Source: a virus. From it: a stretch of DNA of 64,000 nt. Below are positions 1 through 62,908 of this stretch, in pieces (the first letter of the stretch is position 1; each line of letters starts with the position of its first letter). The notes under the pieces were generated by a model, which was not told where the DNA came from, searched no databases, and saw only the letters and a list, made by a program, of their open reading frames with translations. The DNA lies in IMG/VR virus record IMGVR_UViG_3300025687_000029, positions 31,667-95,666 of that record. One strand, written 5' to 3'. The position numbers and the translations under genes were made by a program.

Positions 1-2
1 TC

Positions 3-122
3 AAAGCCAGGCCTGGTCAGGCAGGGGGATTTAAAAACGCTAAACCTCTACCAGAAGTAACTGAATTAACAGTAGCTGAAATATCTAAATTATTAGGAAA
101 AACAGTTAAAATCATTAAATAA
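3..122 (+). CDS. 3' end of hypothetical phage protein (truncated by window edge)
   Basis: Open frame KARPGQAGGFKNAKPLPEVTELTVAEISKLLGKTVKIIK*; the C-terminal ELTVAEISKLLG..VKII tail is common in phage hypotheticals. Confidence 0.7.
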   Translation, partial: KARPGQAGGFKNAKPLPEVTELTVAEISKLLGKTVKIIK

Positions 123-179
123 TTGAGAAGATTAAACTACTCCCTTTATTAACTATTATGAATTTAAACCATAACAACT

Positions 180-428
180 ATGAACATATATCTACTAAAA
201 CAAGACCTTATAACAGGAAAAGATACCTATAACTCAGCAATAGTTATAGCAGATACAATAGAAGAAGCTAAAAGTATTCATCCTGCTAATTATACAGATA
301 AAAACTATTGGTGTGAATATACCTGGCCTTCTAGAGATCAATTAGATCATATCAAAGTAATTCAATTGGGAATTGCTTATGCTCACCTAAAGAAAGGTGT
401 AGTATTATCATCATTAAATATAGATTAA
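180..428 (+). CDS. hypothetical protein
   Basis: 82 aa ORF, A-rich leader, typical phage codon usage. Confidence 0.75.
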   Translation: MNIYLLKQDLITGKDTYNSAIVIADTIEEAKSIHPANYTDKNYWCEYTWPSRDQLDHIKVIQLGIAYAHLKKGVVLSSLNID

Positions 429-445
429 ACTTAAAAAGAACTACT

Positions 446-709
446 ATGAAAGTCCTATTTACAGATACATGTAATATGTTTGAATCAGCTAACCCTGTTG
501 CAAACTTAGTCGAAGTATTTAATACTTCTGAAACTATAATGAAGAAATTAGAATTATCTCAGGTTGGAGTCAGTCGAAGAGGTGGATCTTGGCGTGAAAT
601 AATGGATGATGGAAATATTAAATTTAATCACCTATCTAAAGGTAAAAAAAGTGATTATGATTCTAGTGACTATGATCTAGAGTATAAATTAATTAGTGGA
701 AATTATTAA
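446..709 (+). CDS. hypothetical protein
   Basis: 87 aa ORF in a tightly packed run. Confidence 0.7.
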   Translation: MKVLFTDTCNMFESANPVANLVEVFNTSETIMKKLELSQVGVSRRGGSWREIMDDGNIKFNHLSKGKKSDYDSSDYDLEYKLISGNY

Positions 710-726
710 TTCTAAACTTAAGAATT

Positions 727-978
727 ATGACAATCTCATTAATACTTATAATTATATTATTAAGTTGTATAGCCACATTAGCATTTGTTAAAATAAACAG
801 ATTTATTGTATTATTGATGTGTACATCAGTATTAGTAAATATTCTAACATTGATGGATTATACAACAAAAGAAACCTACCAAAAAGCTCTAACTAATAAC
901 CCTTATGAAATGGTTATATTATATGATATTGAAAAACAACCAGTAGATACAATCTATAAACTAAAGAAAGATGAATAA
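727..978 (+). CDS. small membrane protein (2 TM)
   Basis: Two hydrophobic N-terminal segments. Confidence 0.7.
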   Translation: MTISLILIIILLSCIATLAFVKINRFIVLLMCTSVLVNILTLMDYTTKETYQKALTNNPYEMVILYDIEKQPVDTIYKLKKDE

Positions 979-1030
979 ACTACCAAAATAGTTTGAAAAT
1001 AGATGGTTTTAACTTTAAAAAACTAAAATT

Positions 1031-1204
1031 ATGTATACAGAAGAACAAGCAAAAGAATTAGCTGAAAACTTAGACATTCTTTCTAATGGAAGTGTTCAAT
1101 ATATAGTAGAATTTTTATTATCTAATAAAGATAGAACTATAGAAGAAATGATAGAGCATACTAACTATGCAGTTGATATGCTGATAAACTGTATTGAAGA
1201 ATAA
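1031..1204 (+). CDS. small acidic hypothetical protein (57 aa, not in ORF track)
   Basis: Hand translation MYTEEQAKELAENLDILSNGSVQYIVEFLL...NCIEE*, AAAATT-ATG leader. Confidence 0.7.
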   Translation: MYTEEQAKELAENLDILSNGSVQYIVEFLLSNKDRTIEEMIEHTNYAVDMLINCIEE

Positions 1205-2030
1205 AGTGCCATATTGCACATACTCATCCTAAATGGTTGCCATGCTATAATTATTAGGTATGTGCTGTCAACACTTTAATACAATCTTTTGGTGGTTGGT
1301 TTACGTGGAGAATATGGATTGGGGAAAGTATTGGTGAAAGGCCAATAATTAGATTGTATTTTAAACAATGATAATGTTAGCAAATCGTTGTACCTAAAAA
1401 GGTTTTATAGCTAACGGCAAACTCTAAATTAACACCAAGAGTTATTTTGGTCATAAGTAGATTCATTTCATCTACATTGCGTCCCACTCTGAAAGGAGAT
1501 TAAGCTGAATTGACAGTCTCGCAGTAATTTATTAGAATTTTATAATCAAGATTTAGGAGGTGTTATAGGGGATATAGTAATTAAGTGGAAAATCAGGGTC
1601 TTCATCGTCGCTGTTGTCTGTTCGAGCCAGGCTATCCCCACTAATTAACAATATTCGATAGGGGTATGGAACATCACTATACTAATTCTAGTTAATGCGA
1701 ATTATATAAAATGGAAACCTTTATATACTAGATTTAAAAAGGTGAAAACTTGGTAATAAATTAATCTCCTTTTACCAAGGATCATTATAGATATAGACTT
1801 TGGAGCCATATTAACTTATTTCTATAGATAAATCTAGTGAGTAAGTTTCTAAGTTATTATGGATGATAGAACGATAACTGAAGCTAGTTAAACTAAGAGT
1901 AAAATAAACTCCAAGTAGTTAGTCTACAATTGTCTCAATAAGATGGTTTAGGGTTTAATCCAAATTGAGAACTCTTAGTTTATTTTTAATAAAAAACTAA
2001 TTAACAATTAAATATTCACAAAAAATTTAA
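1205..2030 (+). ncRNA. ORF-free region of consecutive stem-loops; probable small structured RNA cluster
   Basis: Closing stems include GCACATAC 1216/GTATGTGC 1258, AATACAATCT 1278/AGATTGTATT 1351, CTTGGTAA 1749/TTACCAAG 1772 and AACTAAGAGT 1891/ACTCTTAGTT 1971. Confidence 0.5.
1568..1640 (+). tRNA. tRNA-like gene/pseudo-tRNA, anticodon arm degenerate (CAT or TCA readable), no encoded CCA
   Basis: Acceptor GGGGATA/TATCCCC, T-arm GTCTG-TTCGAGC-CAGGC, D-loop GG; anticodon stem does not pair canonically. Confidence 0.65.
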
Positions 2031-2034
2031 AGTT

Positions 2035-2319
2035 ATGAATGTATTTTATTCAATGATATTACTAACACCTAAGCAATTTATTGATAAGTTTAAAATTTAT
2101 GATACAATTGTTTTAGGTGCATTAAATGAAACTAATGTAAAAGGGCTAAGTAATGATTTTTACGTAGATAAAGTCTTACCTAAAGTTAGAGAATCAATAC
2201 CTAATTTAAGTATTGCTGCGAAGCCAATTACTAAAGACAGAACCCTATGGCTTATCTCTACTAAAAATTTAGATAAAGAGAATATAAAACAATTAAATAT
2301 AGTATTAACTAAAATTTAA
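2035..2319 (+). CDS. hypothetical protein
   Basis: 94 aa ORF with long A-rich leader. Confidence 0.7.
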   Translation: MNVFYSMILLTPKQFIDKFKIYDTIVLGALNETNVKGLSNDFYVDKVLPKVRESIPNLSIAAKPITKDRTLWLISTKNLDKENIKQLNIVLTKI

Positions 2320-2326
2320 AGGAGTT

Positions 2327-2785
2327 ATGAAACTTAAATATTACAGAGGAAATATTCTTCCTCCAGAAGATGACAATCTTCCTAAATATTGGGCAGTTGT
2401 TAATGACAATTCTGAATTATATATTAATGTTGTGGTTGGTTATGTGAATAAATATTATGGGGGAGGACATTCTGCATTAAAACCAGAAAATTATTGCAAA
2501 TTTCATGGAAGATTAGATGATTATGGATGCACTAATGGAAGTCATATGAATTATATGAAATCTGAGTTAAAAATTTTATCCATAGAAGAATTCATAAAAC
2601 TTACCCAACCACAAGTTGATTTTGAGATGTTGAAAGGAACGTTACAACATTTAAGACATGATCTACAATATATGATGGTAGAAGATAAATGTATTGATAA
2701 TGTTGAACTATTCTTCCACCTATTATCAACTAAACCAACATTTGCAGCTAAAGCACATGAGGAGTTAAAACGATTAAACAAATAA
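2327..2785 (+). CDS. hypothetical protein
   Basis: 152 aa ORF. Confidence 0.75.
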   Translation: MKLKYYRGNILPPEDDNLPKYWAVVNDNSELYINVVVGYVNKYYGGGHSALKPENYCKFHGRLDDYGCTNGSHMNYMKSELKILSIEEFIKLTQPQVDFEMLKGTLQHLRHDLQYMMVEDKCIDNVELFFHLLSTKPTFAAKAHEELKRLNK

Positions 2786-2787
2786 CT

Positions 2788-2913
2788 ATGAAAAGATATA
2801 CAGTAATAAATAACAAAACAGGTTATAAAAGCAATTATAGTTACTTTATGTGGAATTTAGCTTGGAGTTTGGTGTTTATATTTGGAGTATTAACAGGTAT
2901 ATTTATATCTTAA
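2788..2913 (+). CDS. small membrane protein (41 aa, not in ORF track)
   Basis: MKRYTVINNKTGYKSNYSYFMWNLAWSLVFIFGVLTGIFIS*; fills the gap between neighbours. Confidence 0.6.
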   Translation: MKRYTVINNKTGYKSNYSYFMWNLAWSLVFIFGVLTGIFIS

Positions 2914-2923
2914 ATAAATAACT

Positions 2924-3355
2924 ATGGAACTAGAATTAGTAGACTTTTCTTTAGCCCAGGAGCTAAAAGAAGTTGGGTTTAAGGAATTATGCTTTTATTA
3001 TTATGAAGATGAAAAACTAAAAGAACCTTATTTAGAAAATGGAAGCTCAACAGATACAGACTTTAGAGTTGATTTGGAAGACTTGCGAGACAATTACAAT
3101 TATTTGTCTTATAGATGTAACGCTCCGTATCTCGAAGAAGCTAAAATGTGGTTTAGGGAAGTACATGAGATTGATATATGTATTAATCCACACTATAAAA
3201 CTAACAACGACATAGCAGGATTTATGGTAGATGTTTACATTAGAAAAGTAAAATACAACTCACATAAATACGGTGATGCTAAAGATACCTACAACCAAGC
3301 TCTATCATCAGGATTAAAGGAGGCGTGTAAACTAATTAAGAACCAATTAAGATGA
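2924..3355 (+). CDS. conserved hypothetical Bacteroidota-phage protein
   Basis: FSLAQELKEVGF...AP...WFRE.H.I...TY..AL..GL pattern familiar from Bacteroidota phages. Confidence 0.8.
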   Translation: MELELVDFSLAQELKEVGFKELCFYYYEDEKLKEPYLENGSSTDTDFRVDLEDLRDNYNYLSYRCNAPYLEEAKMWFREVHEIDICINPHYKTNNDIAGFMVDVYIRKVKYNSHKYGDAKDTYNQALSSGLKEACKLIKNQLR

Positions 3356-3525
3356 AAGCAAATAAAACATATCAGGAAAAAGTTGATGATTATGTTAAAC
3401 AACAAGTAGAATTAGCTAAAGAAAATGACGTTACTGGTATAATTGTGATAGACCACTCACATATTATCTCAGATAAAGACAAAGAAGAGTTAATTAAACT
3501 AAGTGAATTAATTAAAACTGATTAA
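3352..3525 (+). CDS. hypothetical protein (57 aa, not in ORF track)
   Basis: MKANKTYQEKVDDYVKQQVELAKENDVTGIIVIDHSH...; ATGA overlap with the upstream stop. Confidence 0.6.
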   Translation: MKANKTYQEKVDDYVKQQVELAKENDVTGIIVIDHSHIISDKDKEELIKLSELIKTD

Positions 3526-3526
3526 G

Positions 3527-4162
3527 ATGAAAGCAAAAGTAATAATGTTGGATAGTAAAACGAGTACTATCCACAAACATCAAAAAGAATTAAAAATTAC
3601 AAAGTTTGAATTAGAAGAAACTGATTTTTTTATACCCCAATATTTATATCTAACCAACCCAAATGCTAAAATTGAAGTTGGAGATTATTTTATTAAAGAT
3701 AAAATGGTTTGTCAATGTAATGAAACTACTCAGAATGAGTTAGGCTGTATTCCCGACAATGAAGTATATTGTAATACTCAAACTTATTTTGATAGAAGAA
3801 ATTGTGTTAAAATAATAGCAACTACTAATTCTTCTTTAAGAATATTATTTGAAGGTCAAGAAGTATTAGAAGAACCTTATCCATTATCAGAACAATCAAT
3901 CAAATTATTAGTAGATTACTACAATAGAAAAGGTAAAATGCCTGATGAGGTTGAGGTTAATTTTGAATACATAAATAAACCAATGAGTGACTTATTTTTA
4001 GACAAAACTATAAAACTAAACTCCAAAGGAGAAGTAGATATTATTATTCCTGAAGAAAAGATGTATAGTAGGGAAGAGGTTGAAACTTTGCTTACTAATA
4101 TGGGTATTGATGCATTATTGCCTGAAGAAGAAGTTGATGAATGGATTAATGAAAACTTATAA
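3527..4162 (+). CDS. hypothetical protein
   Basis: 211 aa ORF; IEVGDYF, KIIATT and MYSREEV motifs typical of Flavobacteria-phage hypotheticals. Confidence 0.8.
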   Translation: MKAKVIMLDSKTSTIHKHQKELKITKFELEETDFFIPQYLYLTNPNAKIEVGDYFIKDKMVCQCNETTQNELGCIPDNEVYCNTQTYFDRRNCVKIIATTNSSLRILFEGQEVLEEPYPLSEQSIKLLVDYYNRKGKMPDEVEVNFEYINKPMSDLFLDKTIKLNSKGEVDIIIPEEKMYSREEVETLLTNMGIDALLPEEEVDEWINENL

Positions 4163-5543: not shown

Positions 5544-5629
5544 GGTCCAGAAGTTCATATGGTAGAATGTTGCCGGGTATACGTTAAATAATTATGGCAG
5601 AGGTATAGGTTCAAATCCTATCTGGACTA
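5544..5629 (+). tRNA. tRNA-like gene with a 21-nt expanded anticodon loop, no encoded CCA
   Basis: Acceptor GGTCCAG/CTGGACT, D-arm GTTC-ATATGGTA-GAAT, anticodon stem TTGCC/GGCAG, T-arm ATAGG-TTCAAAT-CCTAT. Confidence 0.75.
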
Positions 5630-5697: not shown

Positions 5698-5724
5698 AGG
5701 TAGGTTTGAGTGAGCCTACCTTTT
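5698..5724 (+). terminator. Rho-independent terminator
   Basis: AGGTAGGT...GCCTACCT-TTT. Confidence 0.75.
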
Positions 5725-5769
5725 AATAGAAATTTAGCGAACTGTGATGAAACATTTTAGCAAACTGAT

Positions 5770-5830
5770 TGCTAACGATGGGTACATGAAGCGTATGAGG
5801 CACGAATATGATTTATGTACCGTATTAGGT
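5770..5830 (+). repeat. attC-like site 1 (~61 bp)
   Basis: TGCTAAC - GGTACATGAAGCGTAT - GAGGCACGA - ATATGATTTATGTACC - GT - ATTAGGT. Confidence 0.7.
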
Positions 5831-5910
5831 GTCTGTATTTATTTTTTTAAGGGAGGGTTGTTTTATTGGAATGTTATTTGTTTGTTTGTTACAAATTAAA
5901 ATATATAGCA

Positions 5911-6114
5911 ATGGGAAGAAAAATAGGTTCAATAGAAGCATTTGCGCTTCAAAACTTAAAACAAGGACAGTTTTTTTATACGCATAAACAAGACAAAGAT
6001 ATGACTGCAATTGCAGGATATTATAAAGTTAAAATAACAACCGAGAGAATGGTTGCTATTGATACTACAAGGCACGAAAGAATAGAATTTATAACTAAAG
6101 TAACAATACTATGA
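5911..6114 (+). CDS. hypothetical protein (cassette A, gene 1)
   Basis: ATG 5911 (MGRKIGS...) in frame with track ORF 5866. Confidence 0.7.
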   Translation: MGRKIGSIEAFALQNLKQGQFFYTHKQDKDMTAIAGYYKVKITTERMVAIDTTRHERIEFITKVTIL

Positions 6115-6296
6115 AAGATTTTAATTTTAACATCAGACTATTTTGTATATGGAGATGTTTTATGGCTTGTCAGTTTGAATTTACGATACTAAGCATAACA
6201 ATTGGTGAAACCGAAAGGAGTTTATTGTCTTATTTTAAAGACGATAGTAACAAAATACTCGACGTCTGTTTTTTTAGAGTGCGGTGGCAAAAATAA
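6111..6296 (+). CDS. hypothetical protein (cassette A, gene 2)
   Basis: ATGA overlap; stop codon lies in the cassette-end inverted repeat. Confidence 0.6.
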   Translation: MKDFNFNIRLFCIWRCFMACQFEFTILSITIGETERSLLSYFKDDSNKILDVCFFRVRWQK

Positions 6297-6302
6297 ATAT
6301 TG

Positions 6303-6434
6303 CACCTAACGTTTATAAATAATATTAGTAGCGTATGAAAAGAGATAAATATACAATAACCGACTATCTTCGATATGGTAGAAACCTTGCAAATTTGCTG
6401 TGGTGGAAGCTATTAATTTTATTTGGTATTAGGC
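6303..6434 (+). repeat. attC-like site 2 (~130 bp)
   Basis: CACCTAAC; arms AAATAATATTAGTAGC 6317-6332 / GCTATTAATTTTATTT 6409-6424; core ATTAGGC 6428-6434. Confidence 0.7.
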
Positions 6435-6646
6435 GTAGTGCTTCACCAATACCAGAAGGAGTGTACTGTTACGAACCTGATTATGTAGACACAAAAACAT
6501 TTACATATTACGTAAAGCCATGTAAATACTACAAAAACTTAGGGTACGGATGGAATGGATGTAGTTATTTAGGTGTGATTACGGATGATTTTGTATTTAA
6601 TGACCAATGCAAACTATGTAATGAGAATTATTGCAATATACACTAA
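6335..6646 (+). CDS. Cys-rich hypothetical protein starting inside attC-like site 2
   Basis: 103 aa; IPEGVYCY...CKYY...C...DQCKLC putative metal-binding C-terminal module. Confidence 0.75.
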   Translation: MKRDKYTITDYLRYGRNLANLLWWKLLILFGIRRSASPIPEGVYCYEPDYVDTKTFTYYVKPCKYYKNLGYGWNGCSYLGVITDDFVFNDQCKLCNENYCNIH

Positions 6647-6655
6647 CGGAATTAC

Positions 6656-6856
6656 GCCTAACGGTTGGGGTATGGCATGTAATTTTACGAATTTGAAACA
6701 CAAAATTATAATACGATGGAAAAAATAAAAGAAATAGTTGCAGATTTAATGGAATGTTATGATGGAACAGGAACACCAAACCAACATTACATAAAGAACA
6801 AAGTTACCGAGTTGCACAACATAGTTAAAAATATTAATTATGACACTGTGTTAGCA
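6656..6856 (+). repeat. attC-like site 3 (~200 bp, imperfect arms)
   Basis: GCCTAAC 6656-6662 ... GTTAGCA 6850-6856; inner arms pair only partly. Confidence 0.5.
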
Positions 6857-6943
6857 CCTGTTATTTGTGATTGGTGCGAAAAAGACATTACAAACAAAAG
6901 TAAAATTTGTGCAGATTGTGCAGATAGAATGAATGAGCATTAA
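6716..6943 (+). CDS. small protein with C-terminal CxxC..CxxC zinc ribbon, starting inside attC-like site 3
   Basis: CDWC...CADC follows the YDTV|LAPV junction. Confidence 0.75.
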   Translation: MEKIKEIVADLMECYDGTGTPNQHYIKNKVTELHNIVKNINYDTVLAPVICDWCEKDITNKSKICADCADRMNEH

Positions 6944-6995
6944 TGGTTGCTAACTATTATATATTAATAATATCAATAAAATAAATACTTATACT

Positions 6996-7178
6996 ATGAT
7001 AGGAATAATAATTTTTTCAATTATATTTACAATAATCGCTGTATTTATAATTTATGATCTAACTGTTTTTATTAAATATAAAGGCAAGAAAACACTACTA
7101 ATAGGACCCTTCCTATTCTATATTTGTTTAGAGTTAATAATAACTTTAGTATTAATAGATTTAATGAAAAATTTATGA
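6996..7178 (+). CDS. small membrane protein (2 TM)
   Basis: Two hydrophobic stretches. Confidence 0.65.
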   Translation: MIGIIIFSIIFTIIAVFIIYDLTVFIKYKGKKTLLIGPFLFYICLELIITLVLIDLMKNL

Positions 7179-8899: not shown

Positions 8900-10819
8900 A
8901 TGAAGAAAATATATGTATATGATATTGAAACATATCTTCATTGTTTTTTAGCAGTTTATTATGAAATATATTCCAAAGAAACCAGAATATTTGAGTTATC
9001 TAAAAATAAGAATGATTTAGAAGAACTAAAAAACTTTCTGTATAGTAATAGTGATGAATATTTTGTTGGATATAATAATATTGAATTTGATTATCCTGTA
9101 ATCCATGATATACTTTTAGGTCATTCTAATACAACTGAAGAAATATTTAGTAAAGCCCAAATAGTAATAGATACTGAAGTTAAATGGCAAATAACTATTC
9201 CTGAATGGAAAACTGTAGGTAAGCAAATAGATCTCTTTAAAATTAATCATTTTGATAATGATGCTAAAAGAACTAGCTTGAAAGCTTTAGAAATTGCAAT
9301 GAAAATGAATAATGTAGAAGATCTACCTTATGATATTGAACAACCTCTAAATGAATCTCAAATAAAAGAATTAACTGATTATTGTATTCATGATGTAAGA
9401 GCTACAGCTTTATTCTTTTTTAAGAATCAAAATGAAATTAAACTAAGATTAAATTTATCAAAAGAATATAATCTTAATCTTCTTAATCATAATGATCCTA
9501 AAATAGGTGAAGCTATTTTTATGAAATTTTTATGTGAAGAATTAGATAAACCAAGAAAATACTTTGTTGAGAATAATACTAAAAGACCTTATGTAGATCT
9601 TAAAGATTGTATTCTTGACTATATTACATTTGAAAACAAATCATTTAATGTATTACTTGATTGGTTAAAAGAGCAAAGAGTTTATCAAACCAAAGGGTTT
9701 TTTACAGAGATTCAACATAAAAAACTACATACTTTATTACCATATATGAATAAGAAGCAGAAGAATGGTAATATAGCTAAATTAAACATAATTTATGATG
9801 AAGTTCAGTATGATTTTGGTACTGGGGGATTACATGCTTGTATTGATTCTGGGATTTATAAAGAAGATGATGACTTAACTATTATTGACTTAGATGTTGC
9901 CAGTTACTATCCAAATTTAGCAATTGTTAATGACTTTTACCCAGAACATTTATCAAAGACTTTTTGTAAAATCTATAAAAATATTTATGACAAAAGAAAA
10001 GCTATTCCTAAATCTGATAGTAGAAATTATGGATTAAAGATAGCACTTAATGGTTGTTTTGGTAAAGCTGGAGAAAGTAATTCACCATTCTTTGATATTA
10101 AATTTCTTTTATCAATTACTTTAAATGGTCAATTATTACTTCTAAAGCTTGTTGATATGTTATATTCTCAATTAGATATTAAAATACTTCAAGCAAATAC
10201 AGACGGTATTACATTTAAAGTTAAAAGATCTGATGTAAATAAAGTTCAACAGATTAGAAAAGAATGGGAAGATTTGACCAATTTAGAATTGGAAGATGCT
10301 GTATACAAACAAATGATAATCAGGGATGTAAATAATTATATTGCTGAATATCAAGATACTAAGATCAAACTCAAGGGTATTTTTGAAATAGAAAAAGCTT
10401 GGCATAAAAATCATTCTATGTTAGTTATTCCAATTGCTTTGAAAGAATATTTCATTAATGATATTCCTATTGAAACTACAATTAAGAATCATAAAGATGT
10501 ATATGATTTCTGTCTTAGAGAAAAGTTTAATAAAGGTTTCCAAGGAGAATTTCATTCAATAGATGGTCAAGATATTAAAATAGAGACTACTCAAAAGAAT
10601 GTAAGATATTTAATATCAAATTCAGGTAAATATTTCTATAAAAGAAAACTTGAAACTGATACATTAAGTGTTGTAAATAAGAATACAAGATCTATTGAGA
10701 TGAATAGAATACCAAAAGAATATAATATTGAAGATTATGATATTAATTATCATTGGTATATCAAAGAAGCTTACAAAATTAAAAACACAATAGAAGATGG
10801 ACAATTAAAATTATTTTAA
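8900..10819 (+). CDS. polB: family B DNA polymerase with 3'-5' exonuclease
   Basis: ExoI YDIETY, ExoII YN..FD, ExoIII YC..DV; pol motifs DVASYYP, KIALNGCFG, NTDG. Confidence 0.93.
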   Translation: MKKIYVYDIETYLHCFLAVYYEIYSKETRIFELSKNKNDLEELKNFLYSNSDEYFVGYNNIEFDYPVIHDILLGHSNTTEEIFSKAQIVIDTEVKWQITIPEWKTVGKQIDLFKINHFDNDAKRTSLKALEIAMKMNNVEDLPYDIEQPLNESQIKELTDYCIHDVRATALFFFKNQNEIKLRLNLSKEYNLNLLNHNDPKIGEAIFMKFLCEELDKPRKYFVENNTKRPYVDLKDCILDYITFENKSFNVLLDWLKEQRVYQTKGFFTEIQHKKLHTLLPYMNKKQKNGNIAKLNIIYDEVQYDFGTGGLHACIDSGIYKEDDDLTIIDLDVASYYPNLAIVNDFYPEHLSKTFCKIYKNIYDKRKAIPKSDSRNYGLKIALNGCFGKAGESNSPFFDIKFLLSITLNGQLLLLKLVDMLYSQLDIKILQANTDGITFKVKRSDVNKVQQIRKEWEDLTNLELEDAVYKQMIIRDVNNYIAEYQDTKIKLKGIFEIEKAWHKNHSMLVIPIALKEYFINDIPIETTIKNHKDVYDFCLREKFNKGFQGEFHSIDGQDIKIETTQKNVRYLISNSGKYFYKRKLETDTLSVVNKNTRSIEMNRIPKEYNIEDYDINYHWYIKEAYKIKNTIEDGQLKLF

Positions 10820-48154: not shown

Positions 48155-50289
48155 TATAATCCAGTTTGTGATTTTGATTCAGAGCCTCTTTTTTCTATAG
48201 GCATACTTCCTTTTGAATTAACTAAAGCGTTATAGTAGATGGAAGGGTCAGCTAAAACAGCTCCTTCTTGAGTTAATTCATTAATAATCTGATTAGATGT
48301 ATTACCTCTGGAATACATATTAGATATTCTATTATTTAATTGTTGTGCAGTCATATTAGGATGTTCCATAACTACAGGCCCTTGTTTAGTTCTTAAATGA
48401 GCAACAGGTCCTTTTAATCCACTTGTAATTTTAAATAAATTCCAACTTGTATTACCATTAGGATCAACTGTTTTAGTAATAGGTTGTCTAATTTCCTGAG
48501 AAGCTAATTCAAACTTGCCAATATTATCTAATCCTCTTGAGATGTTAGCTGACATTGGTATAAATAAGTCATCCTTTCCATTGGTTGTAAATAAACCGAA
48601 GCCTTTATTTGCATCATATCTTATTTTGAATTGGGGATCCGGTTTATAGAATTCTTTACCTACATCAGTATAATCATCACCTTCTACAACTTTCCACTCC
48701 CCTGAATTAGCATCTCTTGTATAAACTGTTCCTTCAGATCCTACATTTGATAGATTTCTTCCTTCTTTATCATTTAATAAATTCTCAGAGTTTTTAAATA
48801 CTACATCTGAGTACATAGGAGATAATTCTATTGGTCTTGTTCCAGTTTGAATTAAAGGATTAACGTTATCAACTAATGTTCTAGCATCCATATCTGCAAA
48901 TGAATCATCTATTAATTTATAAACATCTAAACTTTCTGCTGCTTTATTACTTTCTTTTCTAAACTTAGCCAGGTTAAAATTAGAATCTTCCATAGCAGTT
49001 GTTAGTTCACTTTTAACTTTAGCTTTATATTCAGCCCAGTCATCAGTAGACATATCTTCAGGTTTAGTTTTCATACCTGAATTTATAATATTATCTGCGA
49101 AAGATCTATAGTCTGAAGTATCCATTTTACCAAGTTCTGATTTCAAGTTATCACCTGTCACCAATTCCATTGTAGTACGTAAAATATTAAACGGATTATT
49201 CCAAATTGCATCTAAATTACTACCAACAAAAGCCTCTACAGGTCCCATAGAAGCTCCGGATTTAAGCGAAAAACTAGATAAAGTATTATCATCTATAGCC
49301 TTACTCAGATTAGGATATTTAGTATCAAATTCAACTAATTTACCTGACTTATCAATAAAGTTATCAGGAATACCTAACTTCTTAGCTCCTGTCTCAGTTG
49401 ATGGATAATTTGTTGTATCTAAATAACCCATAAAGTTGTTTTTACTTCCTTGTGTTTCTTTAGGAGCAAACATAGGTTTAACATTCTGTTCACTGAATCT
49501 ATATTGATCAGCTACATTACCAGCCATTCCTTGAAGCATTTCATAAGCACCTTCACCATATCTACCTTGCAATTGTTTCCATTCAGGAGTAGTCATATAA
49601 TTTTCTATTACTCCCTGCATAGCTATATCTATATTAGCATTATTAGATCTAGTAGTTCCATATTGAATATAATTACCCATCATTTGAGCAACTTCCCCCT
49701 CGGTGACCGGTCTACCTAAAACACTACTCATATTAGCTTTAATAGAACCAAATGCTTCTCTAAGAGGAGCTTCATAGTTTAATTGTTTAGTTGCCATTAT
49801 ATCATAGTCTGTAAGAGGTCTATAATTACCAAACTCATCTGTAAGAGATCCAAATCTCTGATCTAAATCTGTAATATATTCCCCTGTAGCTGTTTGATAT
49901 AGTGGAGACTGTCCTTGTAAAGCCATCTTTTGTCCAGCTTCCATAGCTCTTTGATAACCCTCTGTTCTAGCTTTATCAGCTTGCCAATAAGGATCTTTTC
50001 TATTCTGAACTATAAGATCCATTATATCATCCCTAGCATCAGATAGATTTCCTTGGTATCTTTCATTCATAGAGAAGAAATCATCTCTTAAACTATCCAA
50101 TCTTCTCTGTTTTTCTACAGGATCTAAAGTTGGACTATCCATAATGTTAGAGACGTATTTATTATAGCTTGCTATAGCAGATTCATGTCTCTGACTCCTG
50201 GCATCATAACCTTGAAAGATTCTATCTAAGTTGGTAGGATCAGTCTTAAAATCCCTAAATGCTAATAATTGAGGTCCGTATGTTGGCAT
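48154..50289 (-). CDS. virion ejection protein (putative)
   Basis: 711 aa, upstream of the vRNAP gene with TAATG coupling; crAss-like synteny. Confidence 0.65.
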   Translation of the reverse strand: MPTYGPQLLAFRDFKTDPTNLDRIFQGYDARSQRHESAIASYNKYVSNIMDSPTLDPVEKQRRLDSLRDDFFSMNERYQGNLSDARDDIMDLIVQNRKDPYWQADKARTEGYQRAMEAGQKMALQGQSPLYQTATGEYITDLDQRFGSLTDEFGNYRPLTDYDIMATKQLNYEAPLREAFGSIKANMSSVLGRPVTEGEVAQMMGNYIQYGTTRSNNANIDIAMQGVIENYMTTPEWKQLQGRYGEGAYEMLQGMAGNVADQYRFSEQNVKPMFAPKETQGSKNNFMGYLDTTNYPSTETGAKKLGIPDNFIDKSGKLVEFDTKYPNLSKAIDDNTLSSFSLKSGASMGPVEAFVGSNLDAIWNNPFNILRTTMELVTGDNLKSELGKMDTSDYRSFADNIINSGMKTKPEDMSTDDWAEYKAKVKSELTTAMEDSNFNLAKFRKESNKAAESLDVYKLIDDSFADMDARTLVDNVNPLIQTGTRPIELSPMYSDVVFKNSENLLNDKEGRNLSNVGSEGTVYTRDANSGEWKVVEGDDYTDVGKEFYKPDPQFKIRYDANKGFGLFTTNGKDDLFIPMSANISRGLDNIGKFELASQEIRQPITKTVDPNGNTSWNLFKITSGLKGPVAHLRTKQGPVVMEHPNMTAQQLNNRISNMYSRGNTSNQIINELTQEGAVLADPSIYYNALVNSKGSMPIEKRGSESKSQTGL

Positions 50290-51887
50290 TATTTTCTCTT
50301 TTTTAATTTACCTCCACATCTAAATACATATCCTTTATCTTTATAATATGAAGTTAGATTTGGATCTATTCTTTCGGGGAATTGGTTAAATGGGTCAAAT
50401 GATTGCATTGGATCAGGATCATAAGGTAATACTCCAGTAGCTTCTGACGGTGTAATGCGCCAGGATCTACCAACAAAACCTGGTTTAAGAGGACTGTTTA
50501 AATCATTAAGATTATTATCAATTAGCGGTTTTGCATTTCCATCTTTTCGGACAGGAGTTTCATCATACGGTCTTATATTTTTCTCAAAATCTGATCTCTC
50601 ATATACATATGGATTTTCATCATACGTTGCTAATTGTCCAGTTGTTTGAGTAGTTGGTGATGAAGGAATACTCTGCTTGCTTCTTCTGGCTACATACTTA
50701 CCGTCTTTGTTAAACATATAATCAGGATTATAAGATTGCATTTCTAATTCTAACATTTCGTTTTGCTTCAACCTATCTATTAAATTCCCAACATTCCTAC
50801 CTATAGTAGAAGCTGTTTGAAAGTTACCTTCATCAACATATCTTCTGTCTTCATAGTTTTGAAGATCTTCCCTTAATCCTATATTAGCTTTAGCTATTTG
50901 ATTCTGACCAAATATAGCAGCATTTCTATTAGCTTCTGCTTCTTGAGATGCAGCTAAATTTCTATCCAGATTAGATTGTAATCCCGTTTGCATAGCTAAA
51001 GCATTTGCAGCAGCTTGACCAGATCCACTAGATATATTCTTTAGATTTTGCAAACCTACATTTCTAGCTACGGTAGCGTCTCTTCTAGCTTGCTCTCTTT
51101 GATTCTCATAACTAACATAACCTGGAGCTGGTCTATCAAATGTTAATGGATCTTCTTTAAATTTATGTGCTAATAGAGGTGCTGTAGTTGCAGCAGTGGC
51201 TCCTATATCATACATAGGATTAATTTGATAAGGATCTATTTGATTCTCTACAGTTTGCCATTGACCTTGTTGTGCTGGTTTAGCTTGCACTACAGGTTCT
51301 CCTTTAGGTCCTGTAATATCAAAAGTAGTTCCAGCAAATCTTCTACCAAAATACTGAGGGAGATTACTTCCCGTATCAGTATCACCTGAACCAAAAGACT
51401 GAGCTAGTATCTCATATTTATCAGCAACTCCTGTTAATGTATCATATGCCCCTTGTAGTTCTTTATATTGTTCAGGGGTTAATGCTCTTTTAATTTCTAA
51501 ATCAGTTAAATCTCCTTCTTTATTTCTTATAGCTGCTAATATTCCTTGGTATTTCTCAAATACTAGGTCAGCTTCTCTAGCTTTATTAGCATCTGCCTCT
51601 TCAATTTCTACCGTTTGTTCTGATAAATTATTAGGATCTTCAGAAGTAGCTCCGTAATATCTAAAAGTATAACCACCCTTTTCATACTTTCTTCTCATAC
51701 TACCACCATACTTAAATTGATTAGTGGGAATTTGTTGAGCTTTAATAGTTTCTTGTTGATCTCTAAGTCTGGATAATTCTCTCTTCATTGAAGAAATTGC
51801 TATTCTATCACCTTTATCAACTCTAGCTTTATACTTATTCTTTATTTCTTTTGCCTTATCAGCAAATGTTATTTGTTTTTTAGCCAT
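50289..51887 (-). CDS. virion cargo/ejection protein with xxGG motifs
   Basis: ATG 51887 (MAKKQITFADKAK); FKYGG, YEKGG, FRCGG motifs; A/Q/N-rich helix. Confidence 0.7.
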   Translation of the reverse strand: MAKKQITFADKAKEIKNKYKARVDKGDRIAISSMKRELSRLRDQQETIKAQQIPTNQFKYGGSMRRKYEKGGYTFRYYGATSEDPNNLSEQTVEIEEADANKAREADLVFEKYQGILAAIRNKEGDLTDLEIKRALTPEQYKELQGAYDTLTGVADKYEILAQSFGSGDTDTGSNLPQYFGRRFAGTTFDITGPKGEPVVQAKPAQQGQWQTVENQIDPYQINPMYDIGATAATTAPLLAHKFKEDPLTFDRPAPGYVSYENQREQARRDATVARNVGLQNLKNISSGSGQAAANALAMQTGLQSNLDRNLAASQEAEANRNAAIFGQNQIAKANIGLREDLQNYEDRRYVDEGNFQTASTIGRNVGNLIDRLKQNEMLELEMQSYNPDYMFNKDGKYVARRSKQSIPSSPTTQTTGQLATYDENPYVYERSDFEKNIRPYDETPVRKDGNAKPLIDNNLNDLNSPLKPGFVGRSWRITPSEATGVLPYDPDPMQSFDPFNQFPERIDPNLTSYYKDKGYVFRCGGKLKKRK

Positions 51888-61772: not shown

Positions 61773-62380
61773 TACTTAATATATTCTTGTCTACTACCAT
61801 TTTGATCTCTTTGATGATGCCCATCAAAAAAATCTATATATACTCGACCTGCATATTCATTAGCACTTGCAGCTATCCTTGTTAGCTTCAGCTTATATAG
61901 TGTACTCACAGTCGTATTTACACCGGGAATATCGGCTAAATCAAATAATTTATGATTACCTGTAAAATTACCGTTCATAGTGTTTTCAGCAGTAAAGGGA
62001 CTTCCTGCAGGAACTGCCCAAGCTTCATTTACCCCTGCTGCAATAACATCTACTTGAAATTGAAAATTATCTCCTGTACCATCAGAAGGTACAGAATAAT
62101 GAATGTGTTGATCTAATACAGTTTCAAGCTTCATAGCGTGAGGTGATTGGATAACAGCATAAACATACTCTCCAATATCAAAACCAAGTGTAGGGAACGT
62201 TACACCTCCACCTATATTATGATTCCAAAATATTTCTGCTGGAGCATTTGAAGGTGGTAGTTTTACATTAATTATAGAGGTTGGTATATCATCATATACT
62301 GTATTTTGTTTCGGTTGATTGTCCAAACCTTCATCCATATCTCTTTGTACCTCTGCTGTTGATTTATCTAGTTTACTCAT
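61772..62380 (-). CDS. putative tail fibre/receptor-binding protein
   Basis: Beta-rich; Q.PH, H.H and D.H..RD..GSR.EY motifs. Confidence 0.6.
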   Translation of the reverse strand: MSKLDKSTAEVQRDMDEGLDNQPKQNTVYDDIPTSIINVKLPPSNAPAEIFWNHNIGGGVTFPTLGFDIGEYVYAVIQSPHAMKLETVLDQHIHYSVPSDGTGDNFQFQVDVIAAGVNEAWAVPAGSPFTAENTMNGNFTGNHKLFDLADIPGVNTTVSTLYKLKLTRIAASANEYAGRVYIDFFDGHHQRDQNGSRQEYIK

Positions 62381-62383
62381 ATC

Positions 62384-62908
62384 TTATGTTCTATATATTA
62401 CGTGAAACGGAACACTTATAGTGCCGCTATTTTCAAATTCTAAAGTGAAATACACTCCATTGTTCTTTGCATCAAACCCTGCATCATCACCAAAAAACCA
62501 AGTACCTACAATTGAAACTAAATCAGATCCTTTTTGTCTAACATTATATGTTCGGATTAGTGGGTCTGTTGCAAAATCTCTAGTTCCCGACTCGTCAATA
62601 TATATTCGCATTGTAACTCCACCTTCATTTCCTGAACTTGGAGTGAAATAAGGAGATATATCAATGACATATGTTGGACTATCAAGTTCTTCAGGCATAG
62701 ATATTTTACTCAGAGTCTTATTCCATCGACTTGTTATGTATGCAGGAGAAGTAACCTTGACCTCAGTTAATCCGTTGTTAATAAATAGAAACTCACTTTC
62801 ACCTGTAACAGCGATAGTGTTATCGCCAATTACAGATTCTTTAAAATTGTTGTATCTGCCGTCAAGAAGATTATTAATTTCTTCTGTTGTAAAATCTAAC
62901 TTTCCCAT
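62384..62908 (-). CDS. putative tail fibre protein
   Basis: KLDFTTEEINNLL N-terminal motif followed by a beta-rich domain. Confidence 0.55.
   Translation of the reverse strand: MGKLDFTTEEINNLLDGRYNNFKESVIGDNTIAVTGESEFLFINNGLTEVKVTSPAYITSRWNKTLSKISMPEELDSPTYVIDISPYFTPSSGNEGGVTMRIYIDESGTRDFATDPLIRTYNVRQKGSDLVSIVGTWFFGDDAGFDAKNNGVYFTLEFENSGTISVPFHVIYRT

Follow-up and report, generated by a model that had tools for sequence, protein, structure and literature searches.

What kind of genetic element occupies positions 5749-6954 of a 64-kb stretch of viral DNA, and how did it come to lie there? The stretch (termed the window; bases 31667-95666 of the 95.7-kb IMG/VR virus record IMGVR_UViG_3300025687_000029, rated 94% complete) encodes a protein of 2232 amino acids (aa) that matches the crAss-like phage cr108_1 across 1169 residues (E 2e-79), and freshwater metagenomes hold the same sequence. 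An earlier description drawn from the letters of the window (the original prediction) took the block for an integron-like array of cassettes with attC-like sites, served by an IntI-type recombinase borrowed from a host or encoded outside the window. Here we describe the block as one cassette stub and three cassettes, every one ending in TAAC, and report that at least 25 other phage contigs, as well as two cultured Cellulophaga phages, share this cassette design. On balance we favor, with some reserve, the interpretation that the block is a recent, horizontally acquired fragment of an array, comprising a truncated cassette, three whole ones and a recombinase-proximal junction, in which cassette borders would be brought together by guide pairing in single-stranded DNA and exchanged by a recombinase.

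In the related phages, the defining feature of a cassette is an internal segment of ~38 nt, the guide, which matches, in reverse complement, the joint between the 3' end of the cassette and its own 5' end. The guide consists of a ~22-nt element (Lmotif) followed by a left arm, T-GTTA-N6-GT-NN; the junction that it complements consists of a right arm, NN-AT-N6'-TAAC, followed by S, the first ~24 nt of the cassette. Since the Lmotif pairs with the cassette's own start and the left arm with its own end, the contiguous guide complements the junction of a circular cassette. Lmotif pairing is specific, amounting to -19.3 kcal/mol with the cassette's own start, compared with -7.6 for the start of the next cassette and -7.8 for that of a random cassette (n=51, p 9e-9). 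The complete duplex favors the coding strand in each of the 56 cassettes compared (-37.2 vs -26.6 for the other strand), and G.T wobbles make up 15% of the pairs in the guide-junction helix. At one array locus (L008), every one of at least 11 consecutive small genes combines a left arm (GTTA-N6-GT-NN) with a right arm at its stop codon (NN-AT-N6'-TAAC), and the N6 varies from gene to gene and is complementary within each gene; the strict pattern GTTA-N6-GT...AT-N6'-TAAC occurs there nine times on the gene strand, and not once on the other strand or in shuffled sequence. Across 47 distinct units T-GTTA and TAAC are invariant, as is the G at arm position 11, whose partner is always T, and Cellulophaga phage phi46:3, with GTTG...CAAC, shows a compensatory change even within the conserved word. 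The loop between the paired arms measures 40-870 nt and contains most or all of the open reading frame (ORF). When IMG/VR was scanned with the pattern, 17 of 80 loci among the matches listed contained real units, with 4-12 units per array on contigs of up to 246 kb.

The constraint on these segments is exerted at the nucleotide level, as third codon positions are frozen in the guide: in a widespread gene encoding a 103-aa protein, third positions are variable in two of 12 guide codons vs 50 of 63 codons elsewhere. Two other accounts of the conserved left motif, as a promoter or as a Val-x-x-Ser protein motif, were rejected, since base conservation extends to places without amino acid conservation and the bases covary with the cassette start. 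A comparison of four array loci with Rfam matched no family, and a literature search found no description of this cassette class, returning only canonical integrons and the phage-borne clusters of attC sites lacking integrases (CALINs).

Comparison of related loci delimits the unit that is gained or lost. Among loci bearing the 103-aa gene, homology begins directly after the upstream TAAC and stops at ...CATTACGCCTAAC just past the stop codon, and the neighbors of this cassette differ upstream in at least six loci and downstream in at least nine. Two loci from different samples (L036 and L037) have backbones that are 99.4% identical, including a 271-aa tyrosine recombinase, and arrays that differ by blocks of 7.0 kb and 2.5 kb, with breakpoints within GCTAAC/GGT and within TAAC alone (the slash marks the cassette border). 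The 2.5-kb block, specific to L037, directly adjoins the recombinase gene at the array junction.

Tyrosine recombinases of 266-277 aa, 28-66% identical to one another, start 36-51 nt after the last TAAC of the array in G001, L036/L037, G011, G012 and G013; in G016 the recombinase lies 135 nt after a junction of TAAC and TATTATATAT. The sequence following the recombinase-proximal last TAAC is itself conserved, reading TATTATATAT or TATTATTAAA. The integron-integrase model TIGR02249 scored 74 bits against an array recombinase (cut-off 265), over residues 22-180 only, in the N-terminal half, and the best match was to a XerA-type model, below that model's cut-off. From these comparisons the array-adjacent enzyme appears to be Xer-like rather than IntI. 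A 428-aa tyrosine recombinase (gp034) that follows the array of phi46:3 was considered as an array enzyme and set aside; because it is not of the short family, its adjacency was not counted. When the recombinase alignment was compared with prokaryote genomes, one for each species, the sole hit was a Psychromonas gene at 29% identity, and so no host was found. Arrays of this kind occur in many phages of flavobacterial type, and the source phages are probably phages of Bacteroidota, given their relationship to the cultured Cellulophaga phages.

The block in the window can be read in these terms, all of its parts lying on the + strand. Its left limit is a stub (5749-5776), the last 28 nt of a truncated cassette ending GATTGCTAAC, with 94% identity over 34 nt to a cassette 3' end in L037 (8787-8820) and 21 of 21 matches to L036 (2931-2951); no similar sequence occurs upstream of it. 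Cassette A (5777-6310) comprises S (5777-5800), a guide (5800-5837) made up of the Lmotif and the left arm ATTAGGTGTCTGTA, and a right arm ending in TAAC (6297-6310); the guide precedes both of its ORFs (5911-6114, 67 aa; 6111-6296, 61 aa). Over its first 40 nt, A shares 85% identity with the beginning of a cassette in L036/L037, and the S:Lmotif helix shows a compensatory change. Cassette B (6311-6662) comprises S (6311-6334), a guide (6404-6441) inside its ORF and a right arm ending in TAAC (6649-6662); the guide encodes G-I-R-R-S, of which I-R-R-S derives from the left arm ATTAGGCGTAGTGC. The ORF (6335-6646) is the 103-aa gene, encoding a protein with a hydrophobic N-terminus and five invariant Cys, and is conserved, with 19 protein relatives and matches at 16 viral loci; relative to its homologues the cassette again shows a compensatory change. 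The guide of A pairs with its own junction at -28.1 kcal/mol (shuffled -12.4 +/- 3.0; starts of other cassettes -20) and that of B at -28.9 kcal/mol (shuffled -10.1 +/- 2.8), values that lie 5-7 standard deviations beyond shuffles and are specific for the cassette's own start. On the other strand the duplexes are weaker (A -18.9, B -21.9 kcal/mol).

Cassette C (6663-6954) has S at 6663-6686, a left arm at 6850-6863 and a right arm ending in TAAC at 6941-6954. Its ORF (6716-6943) encodes a 75-aa protein with a zinc-ribbon-like CxxC..CxxC pattern and a weak match to Pfam DZR_2, for which no relative was found among viral contigs. At its beginning (6659-6730) this cassette has 79% identity to a start in L035 (3890-3963) that belongs to a different cassette, and its guide pairs with its junction at about -15 kcal/mol, no better than shuffles; C is degenerate or chimeric, joining the start of one cassette type to the arms of another. 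Taken together, the stub and the starts of A and C match TAAC-bounded cassette ends or starts in L035-L037.

The stub retains right-arm sequence at 5767-5776. The base following TAAC is G after the stub, A and B, and T at the last junction. This last segment (6955-6995, + strand) is a junction of the recombinase-proximal type with the attI-like core TATTATATAT: TAAC followed directly by TATTATATAT matches what separates the last cassette from the start codon of the recombinase in G013, G016 and G012, and L036 shares the first six bases of the core. In the 95.7-kb genome TAACTATTATAT occurs once, both strands counted. No recombinase gene follows; a very hydrophobic 60-aa ORF (6996-7178, + strand) starts 41 nt after the last TAAC in its place. 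We suggest on this sequence evidence that the block was taken from the recombinase-proximal end of an array and truncated on its left.

The features singled out by the original prediction are present in the sequence. Three pairs of reverse-complementary segments, ATTAGGTG..TATTTATTTTT (5824-5846) with AAAAATAAATA..CACCTAAC (6289-6310), ATTAGGCGTAGT (6428-6439) with ATTACGCCTAAC (6651-6662) and GTTAGCACC (at 6850) with GGTTGCTAAC (6945-6954), stand at the stated places and belong to A, B and C, respectively; the stop codons at 6296, 6646 and 6943 do lie inside the right repeats or just 5' of them. The proposal that complementarity between the ends is completed on circularization agrees with the fit of each guide to the end-to-start junction of its own cassette. 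The fold-backs reported between units are equally real, the ~24 nt after each CTAAC pairing with the ~24 nt before the next (G or A)TTAG. They were recognized because of the comparative data; folding energy alone would not reveal them, as single-strand folding of the three gave z-scores near 0. Knowledge of the partner segments showed that, for the top strand, these scores cannot be read as absence of structure. The sequence CTAACG occurs nine times in 95.7 kb, four of them within 5772-6658. We also observed CTAACGG twice, 15 nt apart (6643 and 6658, in the interval 6640-6664), the first copy including the stop codon of the 103-aa gene; the doubling may represent a small duplication of a cassette end.

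Base composition bears on the origin of the block, which had been described as visibly CG-richer than its surroundings; this is true of the CpG dinucleotide. The 1206 nt at 5749-6954 contain 30 CpG, an observed/expected ratio (o/e) of 1.07 that is the maximum of the genome, compared with 0.14-0.25 in the flanks and ~0.21 for the strongly CpG-depleted window and genome as a whole, and CpG density climbs from position 5738, at the left edge of the block. Donor-type cassette loci in other phages have o/e values of 0.7-1.2. The disparity between 1.07 and 0.21 marks the block as apparently imported DNA, an import visible because the crAss-like genome is CpG-depleted. Other CpG-rich patches occur at 1304-1698, 50154-50759 and 62137-62860 of the window and, before the window, at 1-3600 of the genome.

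The interpretation that we favor can be stated as a sequence of steps. In the source phages, a cassette would extend from just after one TAAC to the next, in arrays abutting the gene for a short Xer-like tyrosine recombinase. As the guide is the reverse complement of the joined 3' and 5' ends, it would splint both borders of its cassette together on the coding strand; in the circular cassette, guide and junction would form one continuous hairpin (~38 bp) with the crossover, TAAC/G, in mid-helix. Strand exchange by the recombinase at TAAC/G would excise cassettes, and the same enzyme would insert them at the TAAC/TATTAT site beside its gene, in the manner of an integron. Paired structure with covariation, strand bias, borders and indels at TAAC, and adjacency of the recombinase are observations; single-stranded DNA as the substrate, the adjacent enzyme as the catalyst and circles as intermediates are proposed from them. 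The cassettes in the window are a relic, or movable only in trans, and their small genes probably ride on + strand transcription of the region.

Several findings weigh against this interpretation. The left arms of A and B read ATTA, where GTTA is found in 47 of 47 family members, and cassette C, with arms in the family register, has lost S:Lmotif pairing (-2.2 kcal/mol). Coverage of the window by reads and contigs from four freshwater runs revealed the same strain in an identical arrangement and no supported alternative joint, those listed having 21-letter sides that are not credible; no cassette circle or joint was seen. The tyrosine recombinase family PF00589 has no match in the whole 95.7-kb, 94%-complete genome, and a search of 20 other unit-bearing records found no such enzyme in 12, of which most are fragments and two are rated 100% complete. 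Finally, a wobble-rich helix (15% G.T) that always lies on the sense strand and is tied to the stop codon resembles an RNA structure. We therefore considered an RNA-level element, in which the guide pairs with both ends of a cistron in a polycistronic transcript to effect processing, stabilization or translational control, cassettes being shuffled solely by ordinary recombination at the short conserved TAAC-G motif that ends every gene; a hotspot of ordinary recombination has reportedly been proposed for promoter/stem-loop cassettes of T4-type phages. Such an element would account for the greater stability of the helix on the sense strand throughout the 56 cassettes, for the presence of units always on the gene strand, for right arms that overlap the stop codon or directly follow it, and for the many unit-bearing records that have no recombinase. 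It leaves unexplained why a guide should match the circular junction of its own cassette and not the neighboring cistron, and is hard to reconcile with an indel that shares merely 4 nt at its ends and adjoins the recombinase gene, or with a TAAC/TATTAT junction conserved 36-51 nt before recombinases of one family in five lineages; nor does any Rfam family match. We regard it as a serious though unlikely alternative.

The remaining explanations fare less well. Inverted sites with a private 6-bp spacer, allowing the 3' parts of the genes to be flipped independently by a recombinase, would make the array a shufflon of many switches, and inverted site pairs with a pair-specific central N6 do flank the 3' parts of genes, resembling lox/FRT spacer variants, with a tyrosine recombinase nearby. 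The units examined nevertheless all show a single state, with G at position 11 of the left arm and A at the right-arm match, and no flipped form was found; both fixed asymmetries are wobble-compatible, as base-pairing would require, inversion does not explain the pairing of Lmotif with the cassette start, and the four runs contained no strand-changing joints, so that we consider this very improbable. Slightly less credible still is a canonical integron remnant, the CALIN implied by the original prediction, in which 5770-5830, 6303-6434 and 6656-6856 are attC sites recombined by IntI at G/TT. RYYYAAC-like and GTTRRRY-like words stand in the right places, and virulent phages are known to carry CALINs whose attC sites work (Qi et al. 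2023, PMC9892861). The bottom strands, which should form the attC fold, fold no better than shuffles (z -0.04, -0.02 and +0.86), and strand bias, in the family as a whole, favors the top strand. The supposed sites measure 61, 132 and 201 nt and overlap coding sequence that is conserved; two of the three R' words read ATT instead of GTT; and the conserved GTTA and TAAC lie on the opposite side of the crossover from their attC counterparts, as the outermost part of the cassette-specific stem. Gain and loss in related phages was anticipated correctly insofar as it occurs exactly at the AAC boundary, and incorrectly as to the G/TT of the left repeat inside genes, homology units and indels ending on the TAAC side, after the stop codon. 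The prediction of a borrowed recombinase holds in that the phage has none of its own; the enzyme of complete arrays, as its partial alignment and 74-bit score against a cut-off of 265 indicate, would be Xer-like and not IntI. What survives is thus a mobile-type gene cassette array, without IntI-type attC sites. Least probable of all are repeats that flank ordinary small accessory genes by chance in AT-rich DNA and belong to no shared element. Repeat lengths alone are unremarkable in such DNA: 82 inverted pairs were listed in 1.7 kb, and 25 of these, none of them a pair named by the original prediction, all equal or exceed its exact repeats in length; the fold z-scores near 0 point the same way. 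Chance does not account for the guide-junction energies of A and B, for the same register, invariant bases and covariation in at least 47 units elsewhere, or for a conserved end, TAAC followed by TATTATATAT, that occurs once in the genome.

Comparison with characterized systems places the array-fragment interpretation in context. The integron integrase is a tyrosine recombinase of about 320-340 aa with an IntI-specific additional domain; attC is a compact imperfect palindrome of 57-141 nt (R''-L''...L'-R') with extrahelical bases, recombined as a folded bottom strand, and crossover occurs at the G/TT of R', cassettes therefore beginning TTRRRY. The phage arrays resemble integrons, particularly sedentary chromosomal ones, in several respects: (i) they are tandem arrays of mostly single-gene cassettes on one strand; (ii) in related phages a tyrosine recombinase gene abuts the array end via a special junction; (iii) the site is a hairpin complete only in the circular cassette, with the crossover inside one arm; (iv) the inner stem is cassette-specific and covarying, and one strand folds better; and (v) whole cassettes are gained or lost at a short AAC-containing word, with a polymorphic block beside the enzyme gene. 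By analogy, TAAC/TATTAT in related phages, with the 2.5-kb block of L037 at that place, may correspond to an attI site where new cassettes enter, the window having the junction without the recombinase gene. They differ from integrons in having a shorter, Xer-like enzyme (266-277 aa) that the integron-integrase model matches only N-terminally, and a split site, with a ~38-nt 5' arm inside or before the ORF, a 3' arm formed by cassette end and start, and a 40-870 nt loop that holds the ORF. The phage GTTA and TAAC lie on the loop side of the crossover, whereas in attC the AAC and GTT stand at the inner edge of the outermost (R) box. The phage stem is fully paired, with fixed G.T wobbles and no extrahelical bases; the arrays favor the coding strand and not the bottom strand; and the cassette genes point towards the recombinase gene.

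Other mobile systems share individual features. Phage CALINs, whose attC sites are canonical, detected with IntegronFinder and recombined by IntI1 (Qi et al. 2023, PMC9892861), resemble the window in forming a short cassette cluster without recombinase in a virulent-type phage genome; the window sites are of another geometry and were not found via the attC model. The phage arrays can also be set beside Xer-dependent elements. In CTX-phi, two inverted segments of a single strand pair over a long distance to create attP, on which a Xer-type enzyme acts; there the enzyme is the host's XerCD and a single site serves to integrate the whole genome at dif, in contrast to the phage arrays, with their own enzyme and many cassette-specific sites. 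The pdif modules of Acinetobacter plasmids are gene modules bounded by Xer-type sites in alternating inverted orientation, but those sites are double-stranded, 28 bp long and of one consensus, without cassette-specific pairing, strand bias or a dedicated adjacent recombinase. The promoter early stem-loop (PeSL) cassettes in hyperplastic regions of T4-type phages are said to be small genes bounded by structured motifs, shuffled between relatives and reported as circles; they involve a generic promoter and local hairpin recombined by homology, as opposed to long-range, cassette-specific pairing and a link to a tyrosine recombinase.

Further observations concern the setting of the block and the content of related arrays. 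The block is flanked on the left by a tRNA-like gene (5544-5629, + strand; Rfam tRNA, 46.6 bits) and, 3' of that gene, a terminator-like hairpin (5700-5727), and on the right by replication genes: a DNA polymerase (8900-10819), then helicase and primase. The tRNA-like gene has intact acceptor, D and T arms, but its anticodon loop, normally of 7 nt, is replaced by 21 nt; ARAGORN called no tRNA over the whole window, this one included. A blastn search of the block against GenBank phages gave no match, and relatives of the flanking 639-aa DNA polymerase and of a 403-aa protein revealed no syntenic crAss-like genome. Relatives of the 67-aa protein of cassette A, at 59-94% identity, are encoded in JGI metagenome contigs L164-L166 in contexts without cassette arms, and the gene therefore occurs both within and outside cassettes. 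In the cultured Cellulophaga phages, phi46:3 (NC_021792; L158 12927-14243) has at least four units among gp029-gp032, and Ingeline_1 (NC_062749; L163 8700-8872) has an ORF-less unit whose TAAC lies 46 nt before the short integrase gp28, in addition to a second, longer integrase, gp11. One phage contig (record G011, L159+L074, 100001-122591) carries two arrays, one of seven units ending 36 nt before a 268-aa recombinase gene and another, ~8 kb downstream, of at least 12 more reaching the contig end. In L013 (2182-2844), the N6 GCATTA is common to three left arms and two right arms, representing tandem paralogous cassettes that could mispair. The cargo of related arrays includes DNA methyltransferases (L008 4653-5315 and L010 2331-2945; PHROG 56 and 757).

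Integrons are the textbook device for gene capture and shuffling, regarded as bacterial and tied to IntI and attC. The source arrays described here would represent the logic of the integron realized anew in phage genomes, with a different recombinase and a different site geometry, and their cargo of DNA methyltransferases and many small genes may counter host defences. The window would document the passage of such cassettes between unrelated phage lineages, in this case into a crAss-like genome, and suggests that they can persist without the enzyme while the recombinase-proximal junction travels along. More speculatively, phages related to the cultured Cellulophaga phages might own a second, independently built kind of integron, in which a short Xer-like recombinase would move cassettes whose site is a hairpin spanning the cassette on its coding strand, the gene lying in the loop, and recombinase-less copies of which would be mobilized in trans during co-infection, such that a gene pool is shared across unrelated phage families; we put this forward as a possibility that we think doubtful rather than likely. 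Because the cultured phages phi46:3 and Ingeline carry the element, the mechanism is directly testable.

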